NCBI GenBank assembly: GCA_019119895.1
Contig: DWWD01000021.1
Location: 11,789 to 75,788 of the forward strand
Direction of reading: 5' to 3'
Length of the DNA stretch: 64,000 bases
Source: Candidatus Anaerostipes avistercoris
Lineage (GTDB): Bacteria > Bacillota > Clostridia > Lachnospirales > Lachnospiraceae
Both the position numbers and the translations under genes were made by a program. The notes beneath the pieces were generated by a model, which saw nothing but the letters and a program-made list of their open reading frames with translations, was not told the origin of the DNA and did no database searches. Shown here one piece after another: positions 45,224 through 53,434 of the stretch. How positions within the stretch are numbered: position 1 is the stretch's first letter; the number at the start of each line of letters is the position of its first letter.

Positions 45224-45643
45224 TTAAGAAAGCGGGCGTTCCCGCCTTTCTTTATCCGGCAGAGATTCATGGATTTTGGTGGTGCCGGCTTTCATCGCTG
45301 TTTCATAGTACCAGCATTTATAGTCGATCATTTCCAGAGTCTCTTTTAATTCATTGATCTTACGCAGGGTTTCTTCCCTGCATTCCTGAAACATTTCATA
45401 GCGCAGCTGAATGGTGGAGTCGCCTTCGGAGCACCAGTCAATGAACTGTTTGATTTTTTTGATGGAAAGACCGGTCTTTTTTAAGCATTCAATGATGGAA
45501 AGCCGGTCCAGATCATCGTCGTCAAATTTGCGGATTCCCGAATCTGTACGGCTGACAGAAGGCAGCAGGCCTTCCTTTTCATAATACCGCAGAGTAGACG
45601 GCGGAATGTTTGTTTTTTTGGAAACTTCACCTATTGTATACAT
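45224..45643 (-). CDS. MerR-family regulator, AdhR/YyaN-like
   Basis: YTIGEVSK...STLRYYEKEGL, IIECLKKTGLSI (conserved Cys), KCWYYE. Confidence 0.9.
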   Translation of the reverse strand: MYTIGEVSKKTNIPPSTLRYYEKEGLLPSVSRTDSGIRKFDDDDLDRLSIIECLKKTGLSIKKIKQFIDWCSEGDSTIQLRYEMFQECREETLRKINELKETLEMIDYKCWYYETAMKAGTTKIHESLPDKERRERPLS

Positions 45644-45659
45644 AACAATCCTTTCTTTC

Positions 45660-45690
45660 TTGACTTCAAGTGAACTTTAAGTGCTAAGAT
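45660..45690 (+). promoter_or_regulatory. MerR-type promoter with AdhR-like box
   Basis: TTGACT-19 bp-TAAGAT overlapping CTTCAAG-N4-CTTTAAG (45664-45681). Confidence 0.8.
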
Positions 45691-45729
45691 GATTGTACAT
45701 CGAAAAAGAGAAGACTGCAAGAATGAATC

Positions 45730-45758
45730 TTGAGATGGAGAGAGATTCGAAGTACAAT
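45730..45758 (+). promoter_or_regulatory. second, standard sigma-A promoter upstream of larB
   Basis: TTGAGA-17 bp-TACAAT. Confidence 0.65.
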
Positions 45759-45792
45759 AGATAAGAATAAAACGGAGGTATAGGACTTACTG

Positions 45793-46542
45793 ATGGAAGT
45801 ACATGAAATATTGGAAAAAGTGAAAGAAGGGGCCATGTCTGTGGAGGAAGCACAGCGGTATCTCCAGAGGCAGCCTTTTGAGGAATTAGGATATGCAAAA
45901 CTGGACACCCAGAGAAAAATCCGCTCCGGATTTGCGGAGGTGATTTTCTGCAGCGGGAAAGCAGATGAGCATCTAAAGCAGATTGTCGGACGGCTGTATG
46001 AGGAAGAAGGAGAGGTGTTCGGAACAAGAGCCACAAAAGCGCAGTATGAAATGCTGAAAAAAGCATATCCGAAAATTGAGTATGATGAGATTTCCCATAT
46101 TATAAAAATAGAGAAAAAAGATAAGGAAAAAATCGGGGAAATTGCCGTGTGCACCGCCGGCACCGCGGATATTTCTGTGGCGGAAGAAGCGGCGCAGACC
46201 GCGGAATATTTCGGCTCCCGGGTGGAGCGGATCTATGATGTGGGAGTCAGCGGCCTGCACCGTCTGCTGGCCAGACTGGATACGATTCAGAGTGCTAACT
46301 GCGTCATTGCAATCGCCGGTATGGAAGGTGCTCTGGCAAGCGTTATCGGCGGACTGGTGGACAAGCCGGTGATCGCAGTGCCTACTTCCGTGGGATACGG
46401 TGCCAACATGAATGGACTGTCAGCACTCCTAACTATGATCAACTCCTGTGCCAACGGCATTGCGGTGGTCAATATTGACAATGGTTACGGAGCGGGTTAC
46501 ATAGCGACACAGATTAATAGATTGGGGGTAAGACATGAATAA
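45793..46542 (+). CDS. larB: nickel-pincer cofactor biosynthesis carboxylase/hydrolase LarB
   Basis: AKLDTQR..R.GFAEVIF..GK, AGTADI.VAEEA, DVGVSGLHRL, AGMEGAL, PTSVGYG, VNIDNGYGA. Confidence 0.95.
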   Translation: MEVHEILEKVKEGAMSVEEAQRYLQRQPFEELGYAKLDTQRKIRSGFAEVIFCSGKADEHLKQIVGRLYEEEGEVFGTRATKAQYEMLKKAYPKIEYDEISHIIKIEKKDKEKIGEIAVCTAGTADISVAEEAAQTAEYFGSRVERIYDVGVSGLHRLLARLDTIQSANCVIAIAGMEGALASVIGGLVDKPVIAVPTSVGYGANMNGLSALLTMINSCANGIAVVNIDNGYGAGYIATQINRLGVRHE

Positions 46543-47878
46543 AACATTGTATCTGGAATGCTGCAGCGGAATCAGCGGCGATATGTTTGTCGGCGCAATG
46601 CTGGATCTCGGCGCAGACCAGGAGGGATTGAAAGAAGTCCTCAAAAGTCTTCCTGCAGACGGATTTGAGATCAAAATAACGAAGAAAAAGAAAGCAGGGC
46701 TTGTGGGATGTGATTTTGATGTGGTTCTGGATCAGGAACATGAAAATCACGATCATGATATGGAGTATCTTCACGGTCATGACCCTGAATTCCAAAAATC
46801 CCATCATCATGAACATGGAGAGGAGAGCCATCATCACAGCCACGGACATGACCATCATGATCATGAGCATCACGGGCATCATCACCATCATCACGGGGAA
46901 CATTCCCACGAACACAGAGGACTGGCAGATGTGCTGGAAATCATAAATCAGTCCGGATTAAATGAACACGCAAAGAAAACCGCTTCTGATATATTTCATA
47001 TTATCGCGGAAGCGGAGGCAAAGGCTCACGGTGAACCGATAGATCAGGTGCATTTTCACGAGGTGGGCGCCGTTGATTCCATTGCAGATATCTGTGCGGC
47101 GGCATACTGCCTGGACAATCTGGAGATTGAGGAAGTCATTGTTCCGGAGTTATATGAAGGAAGCGGCACGGTCCGCTGTCAGCACGGAGTGATTCCGGTT
47201 CCGGTTCCTGCCGTGACGCATATTGCGGCGGATCATCATCTGTCACTTCGCATGACAGGAGTCAGAGGAGAATTGGTGACGCCGACCGGAGCGGCCATTG
47301 CGGCTGCCATCCGTACGTCCGAACATCTTCCTGAGAAGTTCAGGATCATAAAAACGGGAATCGGTACGGGAAAACGGGATTATGAATGTCCTGGAATTTT
47401 AAGAGCCATGCTGATTAAGCCGGAGACCGGGAAACAGGATGAAATCTGGAAACTGGAAAGCAACATGGATGACTGCAGCGGAGAGGTGTTTGGAAACCTT
47501 ATGGAAACATTGTTCCGGGCGGGAGCCAGAGATGTCCACTATTTCCCTGTTTATATGAAGAAAAACCGTCCGGCGTATCAGTTAAACGTCATTTGCGATG
47601 AAGAAAAAATACCGAAACTGGAAGAGGTGATTTTCCGGGAGACAACGACCATAGGAATCCGCCGTGTCAGAATGAAACGAACCGTACTGAAACGAAGAGA
47701 AGAGGAAATCAGAGGTTGGTTTGGCACAGCGAAGGTAAAGGTATGCAGTCTTCCGGCAGGCGAGCGGGCTTATCCGGAATATGAGAGTGTAAAGACCATA
47801 AGTCAGGAACAGGGGATCTCTTACATGGATGCTTATTATGAGGTTGTGGAAGCCTGGAAAGAGCAGAAAAAGTCATGA
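46535..47878 (+). CDS. larC: nickel insertase LarC
   Basis: SGISGDM..GA, His-rich insert, VHFHEVGAVDSIAD, ELVTPTGAAI, ESNMDD, MKKNRP, RETTTIGIR, PEYES. Confidence 0.95.
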   Translation: MNKTLYLECCSGISGDMFVGAMLDLGADQEGLKEVLKSLPADGFEIKITKKKKAGLVGCDFDVVLDQEHENHDHDMEYLHGHDPEFQKSHHHEHGEESHHHSHGHDHHDHEHHGHHHHHHGEHSHEHRGLADVLEIINQSGLNEHAKKTASDIFHIIAEAEAKAHGEPIDQVHFHEVGAVDSIADICAAAYCLDNLEIEEVIVPELYEGSGTVRCQHGVIPVPVPAVTHIAADHHLSLRMTGVRGELVTPTGAAIAAAIRTSEHLPEKFRIIKTGIGTGKRDYECPGILRAMLIKPETGKQDEIWKLESNMDDCSGEVFGNLMETLFRAGARDVHYFPVYMKKNRPAYQLNVICDEEKIPKLEEVIFRETTTIGIRRVRMKRTVLKRREEEIRGWFGTAKVKVCSLPAGERAYPEYESVKTISQEQGISYMDAYYEVVEAWKEQKKS

Positions 47879-48702
47879 ATAAATATATAAAACTCAGAGA
47901 ACAGATGGAACAGTTTGCGGCCGCTGATGTTGTGGTGGCATTTTCCGGCGGCGTGGACAGCAGTCTCCTGCTGAAAATGGCCTGTGAGGCGGCAGAAAAG
48001 ACCGGGAAAAAGGTTTACGCCGCCGTCGTTCATACTATGCTCCATCCGGCAGGAGAACTGGAGGCGGCAAAAGAAGCGGCAGCCAAAATGGGGGCGGAGC
48101 CATGTGCTCTGTACATCGATGAATTAAAAGAAGCCGGTATTGAAAACAATCCGGAAGACCGCTGCTACCGCTGTAAAAAACATCTGTTTCAGAAAATCAG
48201 AGAACTGGCGTCCGAAAAAGGGACTTCTGTTATACTGGAAGGGACCAATGAGGATGATCTTCATGTTTACCGTCCGGGAATCCGGGCAGTCCGGGAACTG
48301 AAAATTTATAGTCCCCTGGCGGATGCGGGCTTTTCAAAAGAGGAAGTCCGTGCCCTGGCGGGAGAATACGGTCTGGAAGCTTCTTCCAAGCCGTCCATGC
48401 CGTGTCTGGCCACCAGATTTCCATATGGAGCCAGACTGACTTATGACAAACTGCATCAGGCAGACCAGGGGGAAATTTTTTTAAGAAATCTCGGATTTAA
48501 AAATGTCAGGATCCGGGTCTATGGCGACCTGGTCCGGCTGGAAATAGATAAAGAAGAGATGGGAGGTCTGATTGCTCAGAAAGAGAAAATTATTGAATAT
48601 TTAAAGAAATTAGGATATTCCTATATTACACTGGACCTGGAAGGATTCCGGTCCGGCAGCATGGATATCCATATTAATCAGGAAAAAGAAGGGAGAAAGT
48701 AA
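47875..48702 (+). CDS. larE: ATP-dependent sulfur transferase LarE
   Basis: PP-loop FSGGVDS, RCYRCK, RPG..A, SPL, PCLATRFPYG, GFRSGSM. Confidence 0.95.
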   Translation: MNKYIKLREQMEQFAAADVVVAFSGGVDSSLLLKMACEAAEKTGKKVYAAVVHTMLHPAGELEAAKEAAAKMGAEPCALYIDELKEAGIENNPEDRCYRCKKHLFQKIRELASEKGTSVILEGTNEDDLHVYRPGIRAVRELKIYSPLADAGFSKEEVRALAGEYGLEASSKPSMPCLATRFPYGARLTYDKLHQADQGEIFLRNLGFKNVRIRVYGDLVRLEIDKEEMGGLIAQKEKIIEYLKKLGYSYITLDLEGFRSGSMDIHINQEKEGRK

Positions 48703-48704
48703 TT

Positions 48705-49691
48705 ATGCATATGGCAGATGCGCTGGTAGCGCCGGCAGTTGCAGGCACGATGTATGTATGCTCTGCGGCGGCAATGACGTATTCAATCAAAAAAGTACAT
48801 CTGGAGACAGATACAAAAAAAATTCCGGTCATGGGAGTCATGGGAGCCTTTGTTTTCGCGGCACAGATGATCAACTTTACCATTCCGGGCACAGGTTCCT
48901 CAGGACATTTGTGCGGCGGTATGATGCTGTCTGCGATTCTTGGGCCTTATGCGGGATTCCTGACGATGGTCGGCGTCCTGCTGGTACAATGTCTGCTTTT
49001 TGCGGACGGAGGACTTCTGGCTCTGGGAGCCAATGTATGGAACATGGCGTTTTACGGATGCTTTATTGGAGGACTGGTCCTGTGGAAAATGATCATGAGG
49101 AATGGAATGTCAAAAAAGAAAATCACGGCGGCATCGATTATCGGATGTATTCTGACGCTGCAGCTGGGGGCTTTTTCTGTCACACTGGAAACTCTGGCGT
49201 CCGGGATCACGGAACTTCCGTTTGCTGTTTTTGTGGGGACCATGCAACCAATCCATCTTGCGATCGGATTAGTTGAAGGCATGATCACAGCGGCAGTACT
49301 CTGTTTTATTTATGATGCCAGACCGGAACTGCTGTGGATGCATCAGGAAACAGAAGAAGGACGGCTCTCTTACAAGGGAACTGTAGGTGCCCTGGCATGT
49401 GCCACTGCAGTGATCGGAGGATTATTGTCTCTGGCCGCTTCTTCAAATCCGGACGGGCTGGAATGGTCCATGGAAAGGGTAGCAGGAACAGCAGAACTGC
49501 CGGCATCCGGAGCGGTGCAGCAGGCAGCGCAGAGAATACAGGAATTTACGGCGCTTCTTCCTGATTATGCACTGAAAGGATCAGACAGCGCCGCAGGAAC
49601 ATCCATTTCAGGAATTGTCGGAGCTCTGATTGTTGCGGCATTATGTATTTTGGCCTGCGCCTTTGTAAGGAAAAGGAAGAAAGTGAAGTAG
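48705..49691 (+). CDS. Ni/Co ECF transporter substrate component, CbiM/NikM fused to PDGLE (NikN) domain
   Basis: N-terminal MHMADA metal-binding motif, GSSGHL.GG, ALGAN, C-terminal ASSNPDGLEW. Confidence 0.9.
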   Translation: MHMADALVAPAVAGTMYVCSAAAMTYSIKKVHLETDTKKIPVMGVMGAFVFAAQMINFTIPGTGSSGHLCGGMMLSAILGPYAGFLTMVGVLLVQCLLFADGGLLALGANVWNMAFYGCFIGGLVLWKMIMRNGMSKKKITAASIIGCILTLQLGAFSVTLETLASGITELPFAVFVGTMQPIHLAIGLVEGMITAAVLCFIYDARPELLWMHQETEEGRLSYKGTVGALACATAVIGGLLSLAASSNPDGLEWSMERVAGTAELPASGAVQQAAQRIQEFTALLPDYALKGSDSAAGTSISGIVGALIVAALCILACAFVRKRKKVK

Positions 49692-49693
49692 GC

Positions 49694-50497
49694 GTGGGAA
49701 AAATCAGAGAAGCAATATACGGAATTCATCATATGGACGAGACCGCTTCCAGGGATCAGTGGATTCAGAGACTTCACCCTCTGGCGAAGCTGCTGGTGAC
49801 TTTTGCATACATTTTCATCACCGTATCTTTTGACCGGTACAATCTTCCCGGACTTGCCGGTATGGGAATCTATTTACTTGCCCTGTTCATTCTGGGGAAA
49901 ATTCCATTTTTTCAGGCGGTCCGGCAGCTAAAGGTTATTCTGGCAGTTTCGGCCGCAGTTGGAATCGCAAATCCGTTTCTGGACCACAGCGCAGTGGGAA
50001 GTATTGGAGGATTTGTTGTGACCGGAGGAATGATTTCCATGATCACACTGATGCTGAAAGGAATTTATTCTGTTCTGGCTTCCTATCTCCTGATCGCATC
50101 CACTTCAATAGAAGAAATCTGTTACGCCCTTCAGTGCCTGAAAATTCCCAGGACATTTATAACGGTTATATTGCTGATTTACCGTTATATGATTGTTCTC
50201 CTGAAAGAAGCAGAACGGATTACTCTGGCCTATGAAATGCGGGCTCCCGGACAGAAGGGAATCCACTGGAAGGCATGGGGGTCCCTGGCGGGACAGCTGC
50301 TACTTCGAAGCATTGACAGGGCGCAGGTGGTTTACGAAAGTATGATGCTGAGAGGATATGACGGAACATTCCGCCTGATTCGAAAGGAAGCATCTGCCGT
50401 TTCCAGTATTTTATATGGAGCCGGATTGACTTTACTGTTTGTGCTGTACCGGTATGTGCCGGTATTTGAAATTGCAGGGCGGATATTTGGATTTTGA
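49694..50497 (+). CDS. Ni/Co ECF transporter T component (CbiQ/NikQ)
   Basis: LHPLAKLLV, LIYRY, A.EMRA, LLLRS..RA..VY.SM.LRGY. GTG start at 49694. Confidence 0.9.
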   Translation: MGKIREAIYGIHHMDETASRDQWIQRLHPLAKLLVTFAYIFITVSFDRYNLPGLAGMGIYLLALFILGKIPFFQAVRQLKVILAVSAAVGIANPFLDHSAVGSIGGFVVTGGMISMITLMLKGIYSVLASYLLIASTSIEEICYALQCLKIPRTFITVILLIYRYMIVLLKEAERITLAYEMRAPGQKGIHWKAWGSLAGQLLLRSIDRAQVVYESMMLRGYDGTFRLIRKEASAVSSILYGAGLTLLFVLYRYVPVFEIAGRIFGF

Positions 50498-50517
50498 CAG
50501 TAGGAGGAAATAATACC

Positions 50518-51258
50518 ATGCAGACAATAGAAATCGACCATCTTTCGTTTGCCTATGGAGATGAGCCGGTGCTTTCAGATATCTGCTTTCTGGCAGAAGG
50601 AGAAGAAACCATAGGAATCATTGGAGCCAATGGCGTAGGAAAGTCCACTCTTCTGAAAATCATGGTGGGAATTCTGCCGGAGTATCAGGGCAGCCTCAGG
50701 ATCTGCGGCATGGATGTGGAAAAAAAGAATCTGGCGAAAATCCGGGAGAAAACAGGATATGTATTCCAGGATTCAGAAAGTCAGCTTTTTATGTCCAATG
50801 TATATGAGGACGTGGCGTTTGCGCCGAGAAACTATGGTTATTCCGAAGAGGAAGTAAAAAAAAGAACAGAAAAAGCACTGGAAATGGTGCATATTCAGGA
50901 TATCAAAGAGAAACAGATTTACCGGCTGTCCGGAGGACAGAAAAAACTGGCATCCATCGCCACCATTTTGTCGACTAATCCGGAAATTATCCTTCTGGAC
51001 GAGCCTTCGGTTGCTCTGGATCCGAGAAACCGGAGAAATCTGATCCATATTTTAAGGGAACTTCCGGGAATGAAGGTAATCGCTTCTCATGATATGGATT
51101 TGATATGGGATACCTGCAGCCGGATCATCCTTATGTCAGGAGGCAGAATCATCGCGGACGGAGACACGAAGAAAATTCTTACGAACAGAGAACTGCTGGA
51201 AGAACATGGGCTGGAACTTCCGATGTTTGTGGCGGGACAGCAGAGCATGGAAAAATAG
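50518..51258 (+). CDS. Ni/Co ECF transporter ATPase (CbiO/NikO)
   Basis: GANGVGKST, VFQDSESQLF, LSGGQKK, LLDEP. Start at ATG 50518 behind AGGAGG. Confidence 0.9.
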   Translation: MQTIEIDHLSFAYGDEPVLSDICFLAEGEETIGIIGANGVGKSTLLKIMVGILPEYQGSLRICGMDVEKKNLAKIREKTGYVFQDSESQLFMSNVYEDVAFAPRNYGYSEEEVKKRTEKALEMVHIQDIKEKQIYRLSGGQKKLASIATILSTNPEIILLDEPSVALDPRNRRNLIHILRELPGMKVIASHDMDLIWDTCSRIILMSGGRIIADGDTKKILTNRELLEEHGLELPMFVAGQQSMEK

Positions 51259-51273: not shown

Positions 51274-52299
51274 ATGAAGCAGGTTACATTAGGGAAAACA
51301 GGAATTACGGTACCGCAGAATGCTTTTGGGGCACTGCCGGTTCAGCGGGTTGGTATGGACGAAGCGGTCCGCATCCTGCGCCGGGCATATGAAGGAGGCA
51401 TGCGCTTCTTTGATACGGCCCGTGCTTACAGCGACAGCGAAGAAAAACTTGGAAATGCTTTTGAAGGAATGCGCGGCAAAGTTTACATTGCAACAAAAAC
51501 CATGGCAAAAACGCCGGAAGAGTTCTGGAGCCAGCTGGAAACATCTCTTAAGCTTTTAAAAACAGACTATATCGATCTGTACCAGTTCCATTGTGTGGAT
51601 GTCTGTTACCGGGAAGGAGATGGATCCGGCATGTATGAATGTATGCTGGAAGCAAAAAAGCAGGGGAAAATCCGCCATATCGGCGTCACGGCGCACAAAC
51701 TGAACGTCGCCAGAGAATGTATCGAATCTGATCTTTATGAAACGCTCCAGTATCCGTTCAGTTATCTTTCATCAGAAAAAGAAATCGAACTTGTAAAAAT
51801 GTGCGGGGAGCATCATATGGGATTTATTGCCATGAAAGGTCTTGCCGGCGGACTCCTGAACCATTCCAGAGCAGTCTTTGCTTACATGTCCCAATTTGAC
51901 AATGTTCTCCCAATCTGGGGAATACAGAAAATGGAAGAACTGGAAGAATGGCTTTCTTATATGGAAAATCCTCCGGTTATGGATCAGGAAACAGAAGCAT
52001 TTATTGAAAAAGAACGAAAGGAACTCACCGGGGAATTCTGCAGGGGATGCGGATACTGTATGCCATGTCCGGCGGGCATTAAGATCAATAACTGTGCCAG
52101 AATGTCGCTGATGCTCAGGAGAGCGCCGTCAGCCAGCTGGCTGAGCCAGGAATGGCAGGAAAATATGAAGAAAATCGAAGATTGTCTTCACTGCGGGCAG
52201 TGCATGGCAAAATGTCCGTATGAATTAAATACACCGGAACTGCTCCGAAAGAATTATGAGGATTATAAAAATGTATTATCCGGAAAAACTGTAGTCTGA
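51274..52299 (+). CDS. aldo/keto reductase with C-terminal 4Fe-4S dicluster
   Basis: FFDTARAY, IATKT, YQFH (intact D/Y/K/H tetrad); CRGCGYCMPCP and CLHCGQCMAKCP. Confidence 0.9.
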   Translation: MKQVTLGKTGITVPQNAFGALPVQRVGMDEAVRILRRAYEGGMRFFDTARAYSDSEEKLGNAFEGMRGKVYIATKTMAKTPEEFWSQLETSLKLLKTDYIDLYQFHCVDVCYREGDGSGMYECMLEAKKQGKIRHIGVTAHKLNVARECIESDLYETLQYPFSYLSSEKEIELVKMCGEHHMGFIAMKGLAGGLLNHSRAVFAYMSQFDNVLPIWGIQKMEELEEWLSYMENPPVMDQETEAFIEKERKELTGEFCRGCGYCMPCPAGIKINNCARMSLMLRRAPSASWLSQEWQENMKKIEDCLHCGQCMAKCPYELNTPELLRKNYEDYKNVLSGKTVV

Positions 52300-52324
52300 T
52301 AACATTGTGTGGAAAGGAGAGTAT

Positions 52325-53434
52325 ATGACGGAAGCCTATCTGTTATTGCCGGCGCTGATCTGGGTGCCTTTCGGCATTTATCTTTATCACATCATCGTCC
52401 GGTTTCTTAGTTTATTCCATACCTGGGAGAAAACGGCAGTTTCCAGAATCCTGTCTCTGGCGGTTACACTGTTTTGCGTCTCCAGAGGATGGATGCTTTA
52501 CGGGCTGGGAGCTGTTGTACTCTTTCATTTTCTGGCATTTTCCGCGGGAATGGAAATCGTGTGGCAGATCGGACGCAGGAAGATTCAGAAGGAAAAAACA
52601 AAAAGGAGGCTGCAGTTTGTATGCAAAAGCAGTATCGTAAGCCTTCTTCTGCTTGCCATTGTTTTTGCCTATGGCTTTTACAATATCAAAGACGTAAGAA
52701 GAACCCACTATAGTGTGGAAGCGGGGGAAAAGGAGGCGGATGGTTTCAGAATTGTACAGATTTCAGATCTCCATATGGGAACTACCATGGGGACAGAGGA
52801 ATTGAAGACATACTGCAGGCAGATAGAAAAAGAAAAGCCGGATCTTCTTGCGCTGACAGGAGATATTTTTGACGAGAGCACCACCAGGAGCGAAATGCAG
52901 GAAGCGGCCCGTCTGCTGGGCGGCATCCAAACCACATATGGAACCTATTATATTTTCGGCAACCACGATTATAATCTCTATACGCAGACGCCGTATTATA
53001 CCCGGGATGAGTTAAAAGATACGCTGGAAAAGGAGGGAATCCGCGTGCTGGAAGATGAAGTGACAAAGGCCGCGGACTGGCTGACTGTGATCGGACGGAC
53101 CGATGCGTCTCTGGACCGGGCGGAAATCAGCAGTCTGATGGATCAGGCGGATTCGGATTCTTTTATTCTTCTTCTGGATCATCAGCCGGAAGACCTGGAT
53201 GAAAATAAGGCGGCAGGAGTCAATCTGCAGCTGTCCGGTCATACCCATGCGGGACAAATCTGGCCGACAGGACAGCTTGGCAGCCTTTTCGGCGTAACAG
53301 AGCTGAACTATGGATACCGGGAAGATGGGGCTTATCATGTGATTGTCTCATCCGGAATCGGAGGGTGGGGTTACGCAATCCGCACCGGAGGACATTCTGA
53401 ATATGTTGTGATCGATGTAAATTCGGAAACTTAA
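52325..53434 (+). CDS. membrane-bound metallophosphoesterase (YkuE-like)
   Basis: N-terminal TM helices; SDLH, TGDIFD, GNHD, LLDHQP, SGHTHAGQ. Confidence 0.9.
   Translation: MTEAYLLLPALIWVPFGIYLYHIIVRFLSLFHTWEKTAVSRILSLAVTLFCVSRGWMLYGLGAVVLFHFLAFSAGMEIVWQIGRRKIQKEKTKRRLQFVCKSSIVSLLLLAIVFAYGFYNIKDVRRTHYSVEAGEKEADGFRIVQISDLHMGTTMGTEELKTYCRQIEKEKPDLLALTGDIFDESTTRSEMQEAARLLGGIQTTYGTYYIFGNHDYNLYTQTPYYTRDELKDTLEKEGIRVLEDEVTKAADWLTVIGRTDASLDRAEISSLMDQADSDSFILLLDHQPEDLDENKAAGVNLQLSGHTHAGQIWPTGQLGSLFGVTELNYGYREDGAYHVIVSSGIGGWGYAIRTGGHSEYVVIDVNSET

Follow-up and report, generated by a model that had tools for sequence, protein, structure and literature searches.

An AdhR/NmlR-type MerR regulator and its predicted operator face the nickel-pincer cofactor (lar) operon of Candidatus Anaerostipes avistercoris

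In a 64,000-nucleotide stretch of the Candidatus Anaerostipes avistercoris genome (GenBank assembly GCA_019119895.1, contig DWWD01000021.1, positions 11,789 to 75,788; the whole stretch is called the window below), a gene for a MerR-family regulator of the AdhR/NmlR type lies divergent from an operon for synthesis of the nickel-pincer cofactor (larB, larC, larE), nickel uptake (cbiMN, cbiQ, cbiO), an aldo/keto reductase (AKR) and a phosphoesterase. We propose, with a probability of roughly 0.6, that this regulator is an electrophile-responsive activator of the operon and of two unlinked operons that bear the same box. As a thiol-based activator, its dimer would sit on the dyad ACTTCAAGT-GA-ACTTTAAGT within the over-long 19-bp spacer of a promoter, P1, and at rest would keep P1 off and block the regulator's own divergent, overlapping promoter. 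Once a reactive electrophile, most probably an aldehyde or a dicarbonyl, had modified Cys53 (perhaps together with Cys110 or Cys71), the protein would untwist the spacer and turn P1 on, driving larB-larC-larE for the cofactor, cbiMN-Q-O for nickel uptake, an iron-sulfur (Fe-S) AKR resembling NphT, and the phosphoesterase. The same regulator would activate both unlinked operons, one for an Fe-S AKR with a DUF4405 protein and one for a DUF362 protein with a flavodoxin, and the cofactor genes would belong to the regulon since its reductases use the nickel-pincer cofactor. A second promoter, P2, would be independent of the signal and supply basal cofactor for LarA, which is encoded elsewhere under a GntR/LldR-like lactate operator.

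The intergenic region between the regulator gene and larB is 149 bp long and holds three predicted promoters. P1, the MerR-type promoter facing larB (45660..45690, plus strand), has the -35 hexamer TTGACT at 45660-45665, a 19-nt spacer and the -10 hexamer TAAGAT at 45685-45690, so that the promoter described in the first-pass annotation, with its box CTTCAAG-N4-CTTTAAG, is found as described. The operator dyad (45663..45682) fills the spacer, with a core CTTCAAG-TGAA-CTTTAAG at 45664-45681, and its left half-site overlaps the -35 hexamer, ACTTCAAGT beginning at the fourth base of TTGACT. The region therefore has both the 19-20 bp spacer holding a dyad operator that is expected of the MerR family and the half-site embedding the -35 hexamer that is expected of AdhR and NmlR. 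P2 (45730..45758, plus strand; TTGAGA-17-TACAAT), an ordinary sigma-70-type promoter that matches the consensus at 10 of 12 positions, lies 70 bp downstream of P1 and ahead of larB, again in agreement with the annotation. To this list we add the regulator's own divergent promoter (45692..45720, minus strand), with -35 TTGCAG at 45720-45715, a 17-nt spacer and -10 TACAAT at 45697-45692; it was read by eye, a consensus scan having missed it, and its -35 hexamer matches at 3 of 6 positions. It overlaps P1, as in classical mer operons and divergons, and the predicted merR transcript would start near 45685, beside the P1 -10 hexamer, and run through the operator, a geometry suited to autorepression. 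A 13-nt inverted repeat (45692-45704 and 45746-45758) is simply two similar -10 regions, and a search of the lar 5' region for a leader RNA or riboswitch matched no Rfam family.

The regulator gene (45224..45643, minus strand) encodes a protein of 139 aa that starts with MYTIGEVSKKTNIPPSTLRYYEKEGLL and contains the further segment SIIECLKKTGLSIKK; it is recognised by Pfam, NCBIfam and structure matches. Three Pfam profiles score over their cut-offs (PF13411, 79 bits; PF00376, 63.4 bits; PF09278, 29.9 bits), and the MerR_1/MerR matches describe the fold that defines the family, in which a long dimerisation helix comes after an N-terminal winged helix-turn-helix. A short polar tail follows the coiled coil, with no Cys/His cluster, and a C-terminal effector domain or metal-binding region is absent. 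The top match among solved structures is Haemophilus influenzae NmlR (5d8c/5d90/5e01; E 2e-27), which aligns without gaps over 123 residues. It pairs Cys53, the putative sensor cysteine in the motif IIECLKKTG, with HiNmlR Cys54 (llqCLKNTGMS in 5D8C), the counterpart of Cys52 in Bacillus subtilis AdhR; the divergent MerR gene with an AdhR-type cysteine that the annotation had noticed is thus present as stated. Cys53 is invariant across an alignment of 11 sequences (A1). The sensor cysteine has been called absolutely conserved in the NmlR clade and is essential in B. subtilis AdhR (PMC5001606; PMC4776306), and it mediates the response of both AdhR and NmlR to formaldehyde and methylglyoxal (PMC4776306; PMC5001606). 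The window protein has two further cysteines, Cys71 and Cys110, the latter in a YKCWYYETA motif.

By its predicted features the regulator is best filed in the AdhR-like clade. Like B. subtilis AdhR (YraB) and its Bacillaceae and Paenibacillus orthologues, it is a short MerR protein with no effector domain and has an invariant sensor cysteine in an I(I/K)xC(L/M)(K/R) helix. It also shares with that group a 7-4-7 (9-2-9) dyad of the CTTAAAG-N4-CTTTAAG type within a 19-bp spacer and overlapping the -35 hexamer, and targets of the same kind, aldehyde and alcohol oxidoreductases. Unlike in AdhR, the adjoining target is a nickel-pincer cofactor and nickel-uptake operon, and in place of adhA-yraA/yraC the further predicted targets are an Fe-S AKR operon and a DUF362/flavodoxin operon. 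HiNmlR (HI0186; PDB 5D8C, 5D90, 5E01) likewise lacks a sensor region and has overlapping divergent promoters with an operator that embeds the -35 hexamer (PMC5001606), but its target is adhC-estD, for glutathione-dependent formaldehyde detoxification. The two proteins also differ in detail: NmlR Cys71 aligns one residue off the window Cys71, Cys110 is absent from NmlR, and of the NmlR DNA-contact residues Tyr17, Arg20, Phe21 and Lys24 the Tyr17 position is Ser in the window protein. The best NCBIfam match is also NmlR (NF041849), at 96.6 bits against an equivalog cut-off of 175, which places the protein in a related clade and not among NmlR equivalogs.

Relatives of the regulator outside the genus are found at loci of the same design. 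A scan of one genome per species gave at least 591 relatives, of which the best 80 (49-63% identical) were kept. At about 50 of these 80 loci a promoter of consensus TTGACTTAAAGTTAACTTTAAGTTGTAGAAT points away from the regulator gene, with the register and half-sites seen in the window. The box consensus from the 80 loci, TTGACTTAAAGTTAACTTTAAGT, equals the CTTAAAG-N4-CTTTAAG given in the first-pass annotation; the B. subtilis AdhR box itself reportedly reads CTTAAAG-N4-CTTTAAG, a form compared here solely with the consensus derived from the homologous loci. In Bacillaceae and Paenibacillus, whose regulators are 54-59% identical to that of the window, the first gene behind the box encodes a Zn-dependent alcohol dehydrogenase (ADH), and the Bacillaceae proteins have Cys53, Cys71 and Cys110 in common with the window protein. 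The first genes in Clostridia encode an Fe-S AKR, an Fe-ADH, a carboxymuconolactone-decarboxylase (CMD)/cupin protein, a flavodoxin, an alpha/beta hydrolase or a DXS-like enzyme, Fe-S AKRs being the commonest divergent partners of the regulator clade there. Judged from promoter and gene content, these loci are a classic AdhR-type regulon.

Taken alone, the motif is weak evidence because shuffled sequences often match it: CTTNAAG-N4-CTTNAAG occurs once in the window against a shuffle mean of 0.18, with 14 of 100 shuffles having at least one match. The site is also the single exact one in the whole 2.83-Mb genome, where base shuffles gave 0-1. What raises the box above chance is the 19-bp-spaced -35/-10 pair beside a MerR gene, conservation in four species and restriction to 5 of 20 genomes of the genus. 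Orthologues of the regulator stand at the matching locus in four congeners (88, 86, 76 and 63% identical to the window protein in A1), and these keep TTGACTT[CA][GA]AGT[GT]AACTTTAAGTG-N-TA..AT while the remaining spacer drifts. The P1 hexamers and their 19-nt spacing are preserved in all four congener loci (L030-L033), so that the hexamers lie on the larB strand in all five species. The hexamers equivalent to the regulator's own promoter are preserved in L030-L033 as well, and P2 is preserved as TTG[AT]GA-17-TA[CA]AAT in L030-L032. In the most distant congener (genome G010, locus L033), where 450 bp of unrelated sequence separate the two genes, both the box, about 270 bp away from merR, and the partner promoter on the minus strand survive intact, about 190 bp ahead of larB. 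The AKR and the phosphoesterase are missing from the end of that operon, and the regulator, the box and the lar operon are kept. Another genome, G018, has the lar operon at the same locus with neither the MerR gene nor the box, its promoter being of the 17-bp kind with a lactate-type box only.

The box also marks two other operons of the genome. The pattern TTGACYTNNAGTNAANTTNANGTG, built from three similar sites in this genome and searched in 20 genus genomes, occurs in all five that have the regulator and in none of the 15 that lack it; a reversed control pattern gave no matches. Besides the window site, it stands ahead of an unlinked operon on contig C29, for an Fe-S AKR of 380 aa (AKR380) followed by a DUF4405 membrane protein, and ahead of an unlinked operon on contig C7, whose DUF362 gene is followed by genes for a flavodoxin and a MATE-like protein. 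In three congeners (G006, G001 and G017) the pattern lies upstream of orthologous AKR380 and DUF362 genes. AdhR/NmlR regulons are made up of aldehyde and alcohol oxidoreductases, and the predicted ones here comprise an Fe-S AKR and DUF362/flavodoxin in this genome and Zn-ADH, Fe-ADH, CMD and AKR in the homologues. The genome has 11 MerR paralogues, and the window box is the only site of its type beside any MerR gene: the paralogue on contig C23 has a distinct ACCGNTTGTAACAACCGGT-type box and that on C7 a TAAAGT..TTTAAAGTT variant.

The C23 paralogue is itself a short, Cys-bearing MerR protein (SLSCLKNCGMS; C23:35084-35530), with its own box family TTGACC-GATTGTAACAACCGG (C29:136733, C48:27438 and C48:33174). 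That family also occurs upstream of a His-type AKR, AKR303, from which it seems that putative nickel-pincer AKRs in this genome are governed by two AdhR-like regulons in parallel.

AKR-superfamily proteins encoded beside larBCE bind the nickel-pincer mononucleotide (PMC13524815, Nat Chem 2026). In the prototype, NphT (PDB 9YEB), Lys200 tethers the cofactor and His144 coordinates the nickel; NphT moves hydride between sugars and can reduce butanal, linear aldehydes being reduced without NAD(P)H (PMC13524815). The AKR encoded in the window (AKR341; 51274..52299, plus strand) lies 15 bp after cbiO, in one operon with larB, larC and larE, and combines an AKR domain with a C-terminal 4Fe-4S dicluster domain (Pfam) that NphT does not have. 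Its best PDB match is 9YEB, at 82 bits against at most 53 bits for canonical AKRs. The motif GVTAH aligns directly with GITGH of 9YEB, which contains the His144 equivalent, and the equivalents of NphT Asp47, His106 and Thr142 are kept. IAMKG is matched to NphT TIKAI (Lys200) only by way of AKR380, so that the assignment of the lysine is indirect; a fragment query gave no direct alignment of this region with 9YEB. On these grounds AKR341 appears to belong to the NphT family and to depend on the nickel-pincer cofactor, in which case the cofactor genes and the AKR would be one functional unit and not accidental neighbours.

The distribution of such reductases follows that of the cofactor pathway. 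His-type Fe-S AKRs are present in 11 of 12 LarB-positive genus genomes and in none of the 8 LarB-negative ones (exact test, ~7e-5). In an independent sample of 112 LarB-containing Clostridia all ten AKRs detected inside lar operons carry the histidine, while the canonical AKRs at those loci have GVSNF or GASAM instead. DUF362 is found in 6 of the 12 LarB-positive and 0 of the 8 LarB-negative genus genomes. The simplest reading of the three box-bearing operons is thus a single module of cofactor synthesis, nickel supply and cofactor-using enzymes; the lar genes would probably be part of the regulon to supply its reductases with the nickel-pincer cofactor they need. As to the DUF362 genes of this genome (C48:19898-20773 and C7:9201-10214), the paralogue is broken by one stop codon and gives a weak match to the LarA N-terminal domain model (PF09861, E 4.6e-4). 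DUF362 genes recur both next to lar genes (L201-L203, L222) and under AdhR-like boxes, and DUF362 may be another nickel-pincer-related protein.

The association of lar operons with AdhR-like regulators recurs in other lineages. Four further Anaerostipes species (G005, G012, G013 and G016) have a lar-cbi operon behind another 19-bp promoter, TTGACTT[AG]GAGTGAGCTCCAGGTGATATAGT, with a dyad in the same register, and encode a second kind of AdhR-like protein (LMKCMRKAG; type 2 below) at the 3' end of the operon. The type-2 lar-linked regulators score 144-146 bits against the NmlR model NF041849, and in two of the four genomes a His-type AKR is the first gene of the operon. Outside the genus, a type-2 regulator comes first in a merR-larB-larC-larE operon (genome G326), behind a related box; Clostridium frigoriphilum has two related boxes upstream of cbiMNQO-larC-larE-larB-AKR, and Acetobacterium fimetarium has one before a decayed larB beside MerR and Fe-S AKR genes. 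Seen from the regulator side, lar genes lie within 10 kb at 3 of the 80 homologous loci, against about 0.2 by chance on a rough estimate; among the 112 Clostridia LarB loci, the AdhR-type pattern was absent apart from one chance-like match. From these counts the link between AdhR-like regulators and lar genes is recurrent but rare. We found no relevant paper linking larB, larC, larE or the nickel-pincer cofactor with MerR, and regulators, MerR and Fe-S have no occurrences in PMC13524815.

Two smaller observations belong to these loci. The A. fimetarium larB (L115, 10419-11216) is in two fragments, 69-84% identical to Anaerostipes LarB, between the MerR and Fe-S AKR genes, and looks like part of a decayed, horizontally acquired lar promoter-gene unit. 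In genomes G009 and G003 (L245 2866, L246 3108) a third 19-bp-spacer promoter, TTGACCTTGACCAAGGTTGAGGAGATACAAT, with the perfect palindrome ACCTTG-AC-CAAGGT, precedes phosphoesterase-larBCE-cbiQO; the MerR homologue of these genomes was considered as a candidate regulator for their 19-bp lar promoter (ACCTTGACCAAGGT), but its own box is different.

Anaerostipes is a lactate-consuming butyrate producer, and control of cofactor supply therefore bears on lactate turnover in the gut. In this genome LarA is encoded on contig C8, after a lactate permease. Exact ATTGGTNNNACCAAT boxes, which we take to be operators of a PdhR/LldR-type GntR protein, number only three in the genome, one in the lctP-larA promoter and two before etfB-etfA-D-lactate dehydrogenase beside a GntR gene; perfect operators of this PdhR/LldR type (AATTGGTAGAACCAATT and similar), at C8:480-640 and C3:87340-87520, delineate a lactate regulon. 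An LldR/PdhR-like AATTGGTAGAACCAATT box is present in the P2-equivalent promoter of G010 and G018 and absent from the lar promoter of the window, and lactate-type boxes also occur at lar promoters of the type-2 clade (promoters L033, L244 and L240-L243). G018 encodes LarA but neither an Fe-S AKR nor the MerR regulator, and a lactate-type operator is the sole box in its lar promoter; G001 (97% complete) has the AKRs and the MerR box, and no LarA was detected in it. Together these patterns suggest that the inputs to the cofactor operon follow the client enzymes that need the cofactor. LarR of Lactiplantibacillus plantarum, a Crp/Fnr-type activator that responds to lactate enantiomers, is to our knowledge the only regulator of lar genes described. 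Like the window regulator, it controls lar genes from a site adjoining the operon; unlike in that system, the window has no Crp/Fnr-type gene beside lar, and the lactate input in the genus is a GntR/LldR-like operator.

Several points weigh against an electrophile-responsive activator over the lar operon. The inducing signal, deduced from family membership and regulon content, is the weakest link: S-alkylation of AdhR or NmlR by formaldehyde has not been reported, and NmlR-type proteins are also tied to nitrosative stress (PMC4776306). The regulator's score of 96.6 bits is well under the 175-bit NmlR equivalog cut-off, no class-III ADH or adhA-type gene is in the predicted regulon of this genome, and the firing of P1 and P2 is predicted from sequence only. 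In the congeners, the left half-sites ACTTCGAGT and ACTTAGAGT are less symmetric than that of the window, and the TTGACYTNNAGTNAANTTNANGTG search in G010 gave the lar site only. Outside the genus, a MerR gene adjoining larB is rare, being seen in 1 of the 112 LarB-bearing Clostridia species (L195 only). AKR380 and the neighbouring AKR303 have the histidine but Glu at the NphT lysine position, which makes nickel-pincer dependence less certain for these two; this class is described as frequent among lar-linked AKRs (PMC13524815).

The uncertainty about the signal is also where the strongest of the alternatives lies, namely that the same regulator governs the same regulon in answer to a cue other than a carbonyl, for instance nitrosative stress, disulfide stress, reactive sulfur species or a metabolite of one particular pathway, possibly a substrate of the Fe-S AKRs. 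NmlR-type proteins have been linked to defence against S-nitrosoglutathione, their single cysteine being S-nitrosylated in vitro (PMC5001606; PMC3499171), the additional conserved Cys110, absent from HiNmlR, could form a disulfide switch, and Fe-S and flavin proteins abound in the regulon. We nevertheless consider it unlikely, in that most genes under the close homologues encode oxidoreductases of alcohols and aldehydes (Zn-ADH, Fe-ADH, AKR, CMD), as under B. subtilis AdhR, which answers to formaldehyde and methylglyoxal (PMC4776306). A somewhat smaller chance is given to the AKR being the real target, with the lar and nickel-transport genes as accidental passengers that have no tie to the signal. 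That Fe-S AKRs are the usual partners of the clade in Clostridia would fit such an arrangement, as would the independent promoter P2 and the loss of AKR and phosphoesterase in G010, which shows the operon end to be evolutionarily mobile. The same G010 locus speaks against it, however, in keeping the regulator, the box and the lar operon with no AKR in the unit, and a different AdhR-like clade has independently joined lar operons in other lineages. The His/Lys nickel-pincer motif of the AKR and the co-occurrence of Fe-S AKRs with larB across the genus argue that AKR and lar are functionally coupled, and the G018 locus, which lacks the MerR gene, speaks for a regulator that was gained or lost, rather than for lar genes having been inserted.

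It is also improbable, and more so than either of these, that the dyad serves only to autorepress merR and that the lar operon is transcribed from P2 alone, P1 being a non-functional look-alike. In the predicted merR transcript the operator would indeed occupy positions of about +3 to +22, as suits autorepression, P2 is a good, conserved 17-bp promoter (10/12), and a promoter with a 19-bp spacer is weak without activation. The P1 hexamers, however, are kept on the larB strand in five species, even in G010 with its box far from merR, and the box promoter faces the divergent target gene at the approximately 50 homologous loci. Identical architecture is found ahead of the AKR380 and DUF362 genes, where, with no merR nearby, only the downstream gene is left for the box to act on. 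Least probable, by a small step, is a nickel-responsive, NimR-like MerR protein that senses Ni(II) and adjusts both nickel import and the making of the cofactor to the available metal. Its precedent is H. influenzae NimR, a MerR-family nickel sensor that controls the nikKLMQO importer of the energy-coupling factor (ECF) type (PMC7055735), and as with NimR the window regulator is divergent from an ECF-type nickel importer (PMC7055735). The operon includes both cbiMNQO and the nickel insertase LarC, and in three separate lineages of Anaerostipes a lar-cbi operon lies behind a 19-bp promoter of the MerR type. Against this reading, the AKR and DUF4405 and the DUF362 and flavodoxin operons have no obvious tie to nickel homeostasis, the regulator lacks a Cys/His-rich C-terminal metal loop, and its nearest structure, HiNmlR, is a non-metal sensor. 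Cys53, Cys110 and His125 are equally conserved in homologues over ADH and AKR genes far from lar or nickel genes, Cys71 is absent from the lar-linked G010 protein, and a search for ligand residues specific to the lar-linked orthologues found none. NimR binds Ni(II), and the window protein, judged by these features, shows no pointers to metal sensing in itself or in its regulon.

The first-pass annotation had offered two explanations: that cofactor synthesis and nickel uptake are induced by carbonyl stress, or that a lar and nickel-transport cassette with its own promoter was inserted between the regulator and its usual kind of target, the AKR. The regulator is indeed of the AdhR/NmlR type and its box faces larB. 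The former explanation is the better supported, with the carbonyl signal itself conjectural. Of the latter, the point that Fe-S AKRs are the usual targets of the clade in Clostridia holds, whereas insertion of a cassette finds no support: G010 retains regulator and box with no AKR and G018 has no regulator, which argues against it and suggests, if anything, that a regulator was added to a pre-existing lar operon. The two explanations would in effect merge, the cofactor genes probably being in the regulon since the reductases need the cofactor.

Electrophile-responsive control of the lar operon would have wider consequences. The nickel-pincer cofactor was long linked only with LarA racemases, and the NphT-type AKRs became its second user family in 2026. 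With AKRs, cofactor pathway and nickel importer under an operator of the class used by formaldehyde and methylglyoxal sensors, NAD(P)H-free detoxification of aldehydes becomes a testable hypothesis. We tentatively suggest, with the balance of probability somewhat against it, that AdhR/NmlR-type sensors define a nickel-pincer carbonyl-stress regulon in which aldehydes induce nickel import, cofactor synthesis, Fe-S nickel-pincer AKRs and perhaps DUF362 proteins. If so, aldehydes would be dismutated or reduced without spending NAD(P)H, the NphT family, whose discovery in 2026 left its native role unassigned, would gain a physiological function and an inducing condition, and lar genes would be stress genes and more than accessories of lactate racemase, with two independent AdhR-like clades recruited to lar operons. 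A defined promoter, a mutable cysteine and three target operons are ready reagents, and one gut genus offers a comparison set of lar promoters with a lactate operator, a MerR box or both, matching the client enzymes.

The operon comprises eight plus-strand genes from 45793 onwards, which overlap or are separated by gaps of at most 15 bp. The first is larB (45793..46542; NCBIfam LarB, 295.9 bits against a cut-off of 175), followed by larC (46535..47878; Pfam Ni_insertion, 455.8 bits, and NCBIfam LarC1 and LarC2), in which LarC1 and LarC2 form one open reading frame (ORF) with a His-rich insert, and by larE (47875..48702; NCBIfam LarE, 286.9 bits against 150). The ECF-type Ni/Co transporter (48705..51258) consists of a cbiM-cbiN fusion with a PDGLE domain, cbiQ and cbiO, recognised by Pfam CbiM and PDGLE, CbiQ and ABC_tran and by NCBIfam CbiQ over its cut-off. 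AKR341 comes next, and a membrane-anchored metallophosphoesterase (52307..53434; Pfam Metallophos) is the final gene of the unit. Counts of internal terminator-like or promoter-like signals in the operon did not rise over shuffled controls. In G010 (contig C8 of that genome, 11188-15320) larC and larE are fused in one ORF of 697 aa, and cbiMN is duplicated in tandem, the two copies being nearly identical.

A second larB lies outside the window at C21:25132-26767; it is 64% identical to the window larB and is accompanied by a truncated larC of 277 aa with the N-terminal part only, a pair unique to this genome in the genus. It has its own 19-bp-spacer promoter, TTGACCTGGAGTACACTCCTGCCTTTATAAT, with a GGAGT-AC-ACTCC dyad in the register of the window box; a type-2 AdhR-like gene, sought in the same genome as a candidate for this promoter, was not found. 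Paralogues of the membrane-anchored metallophosphoesterase, 39-40% identical, stand at the lar operons of G018, G009 and G003. The gene is last in the operon in the window and in G018, first in G009 and G003 and absent in G010, and its recurrence hints at an unrecognised role in nickel-pincer cofactor metabolism.

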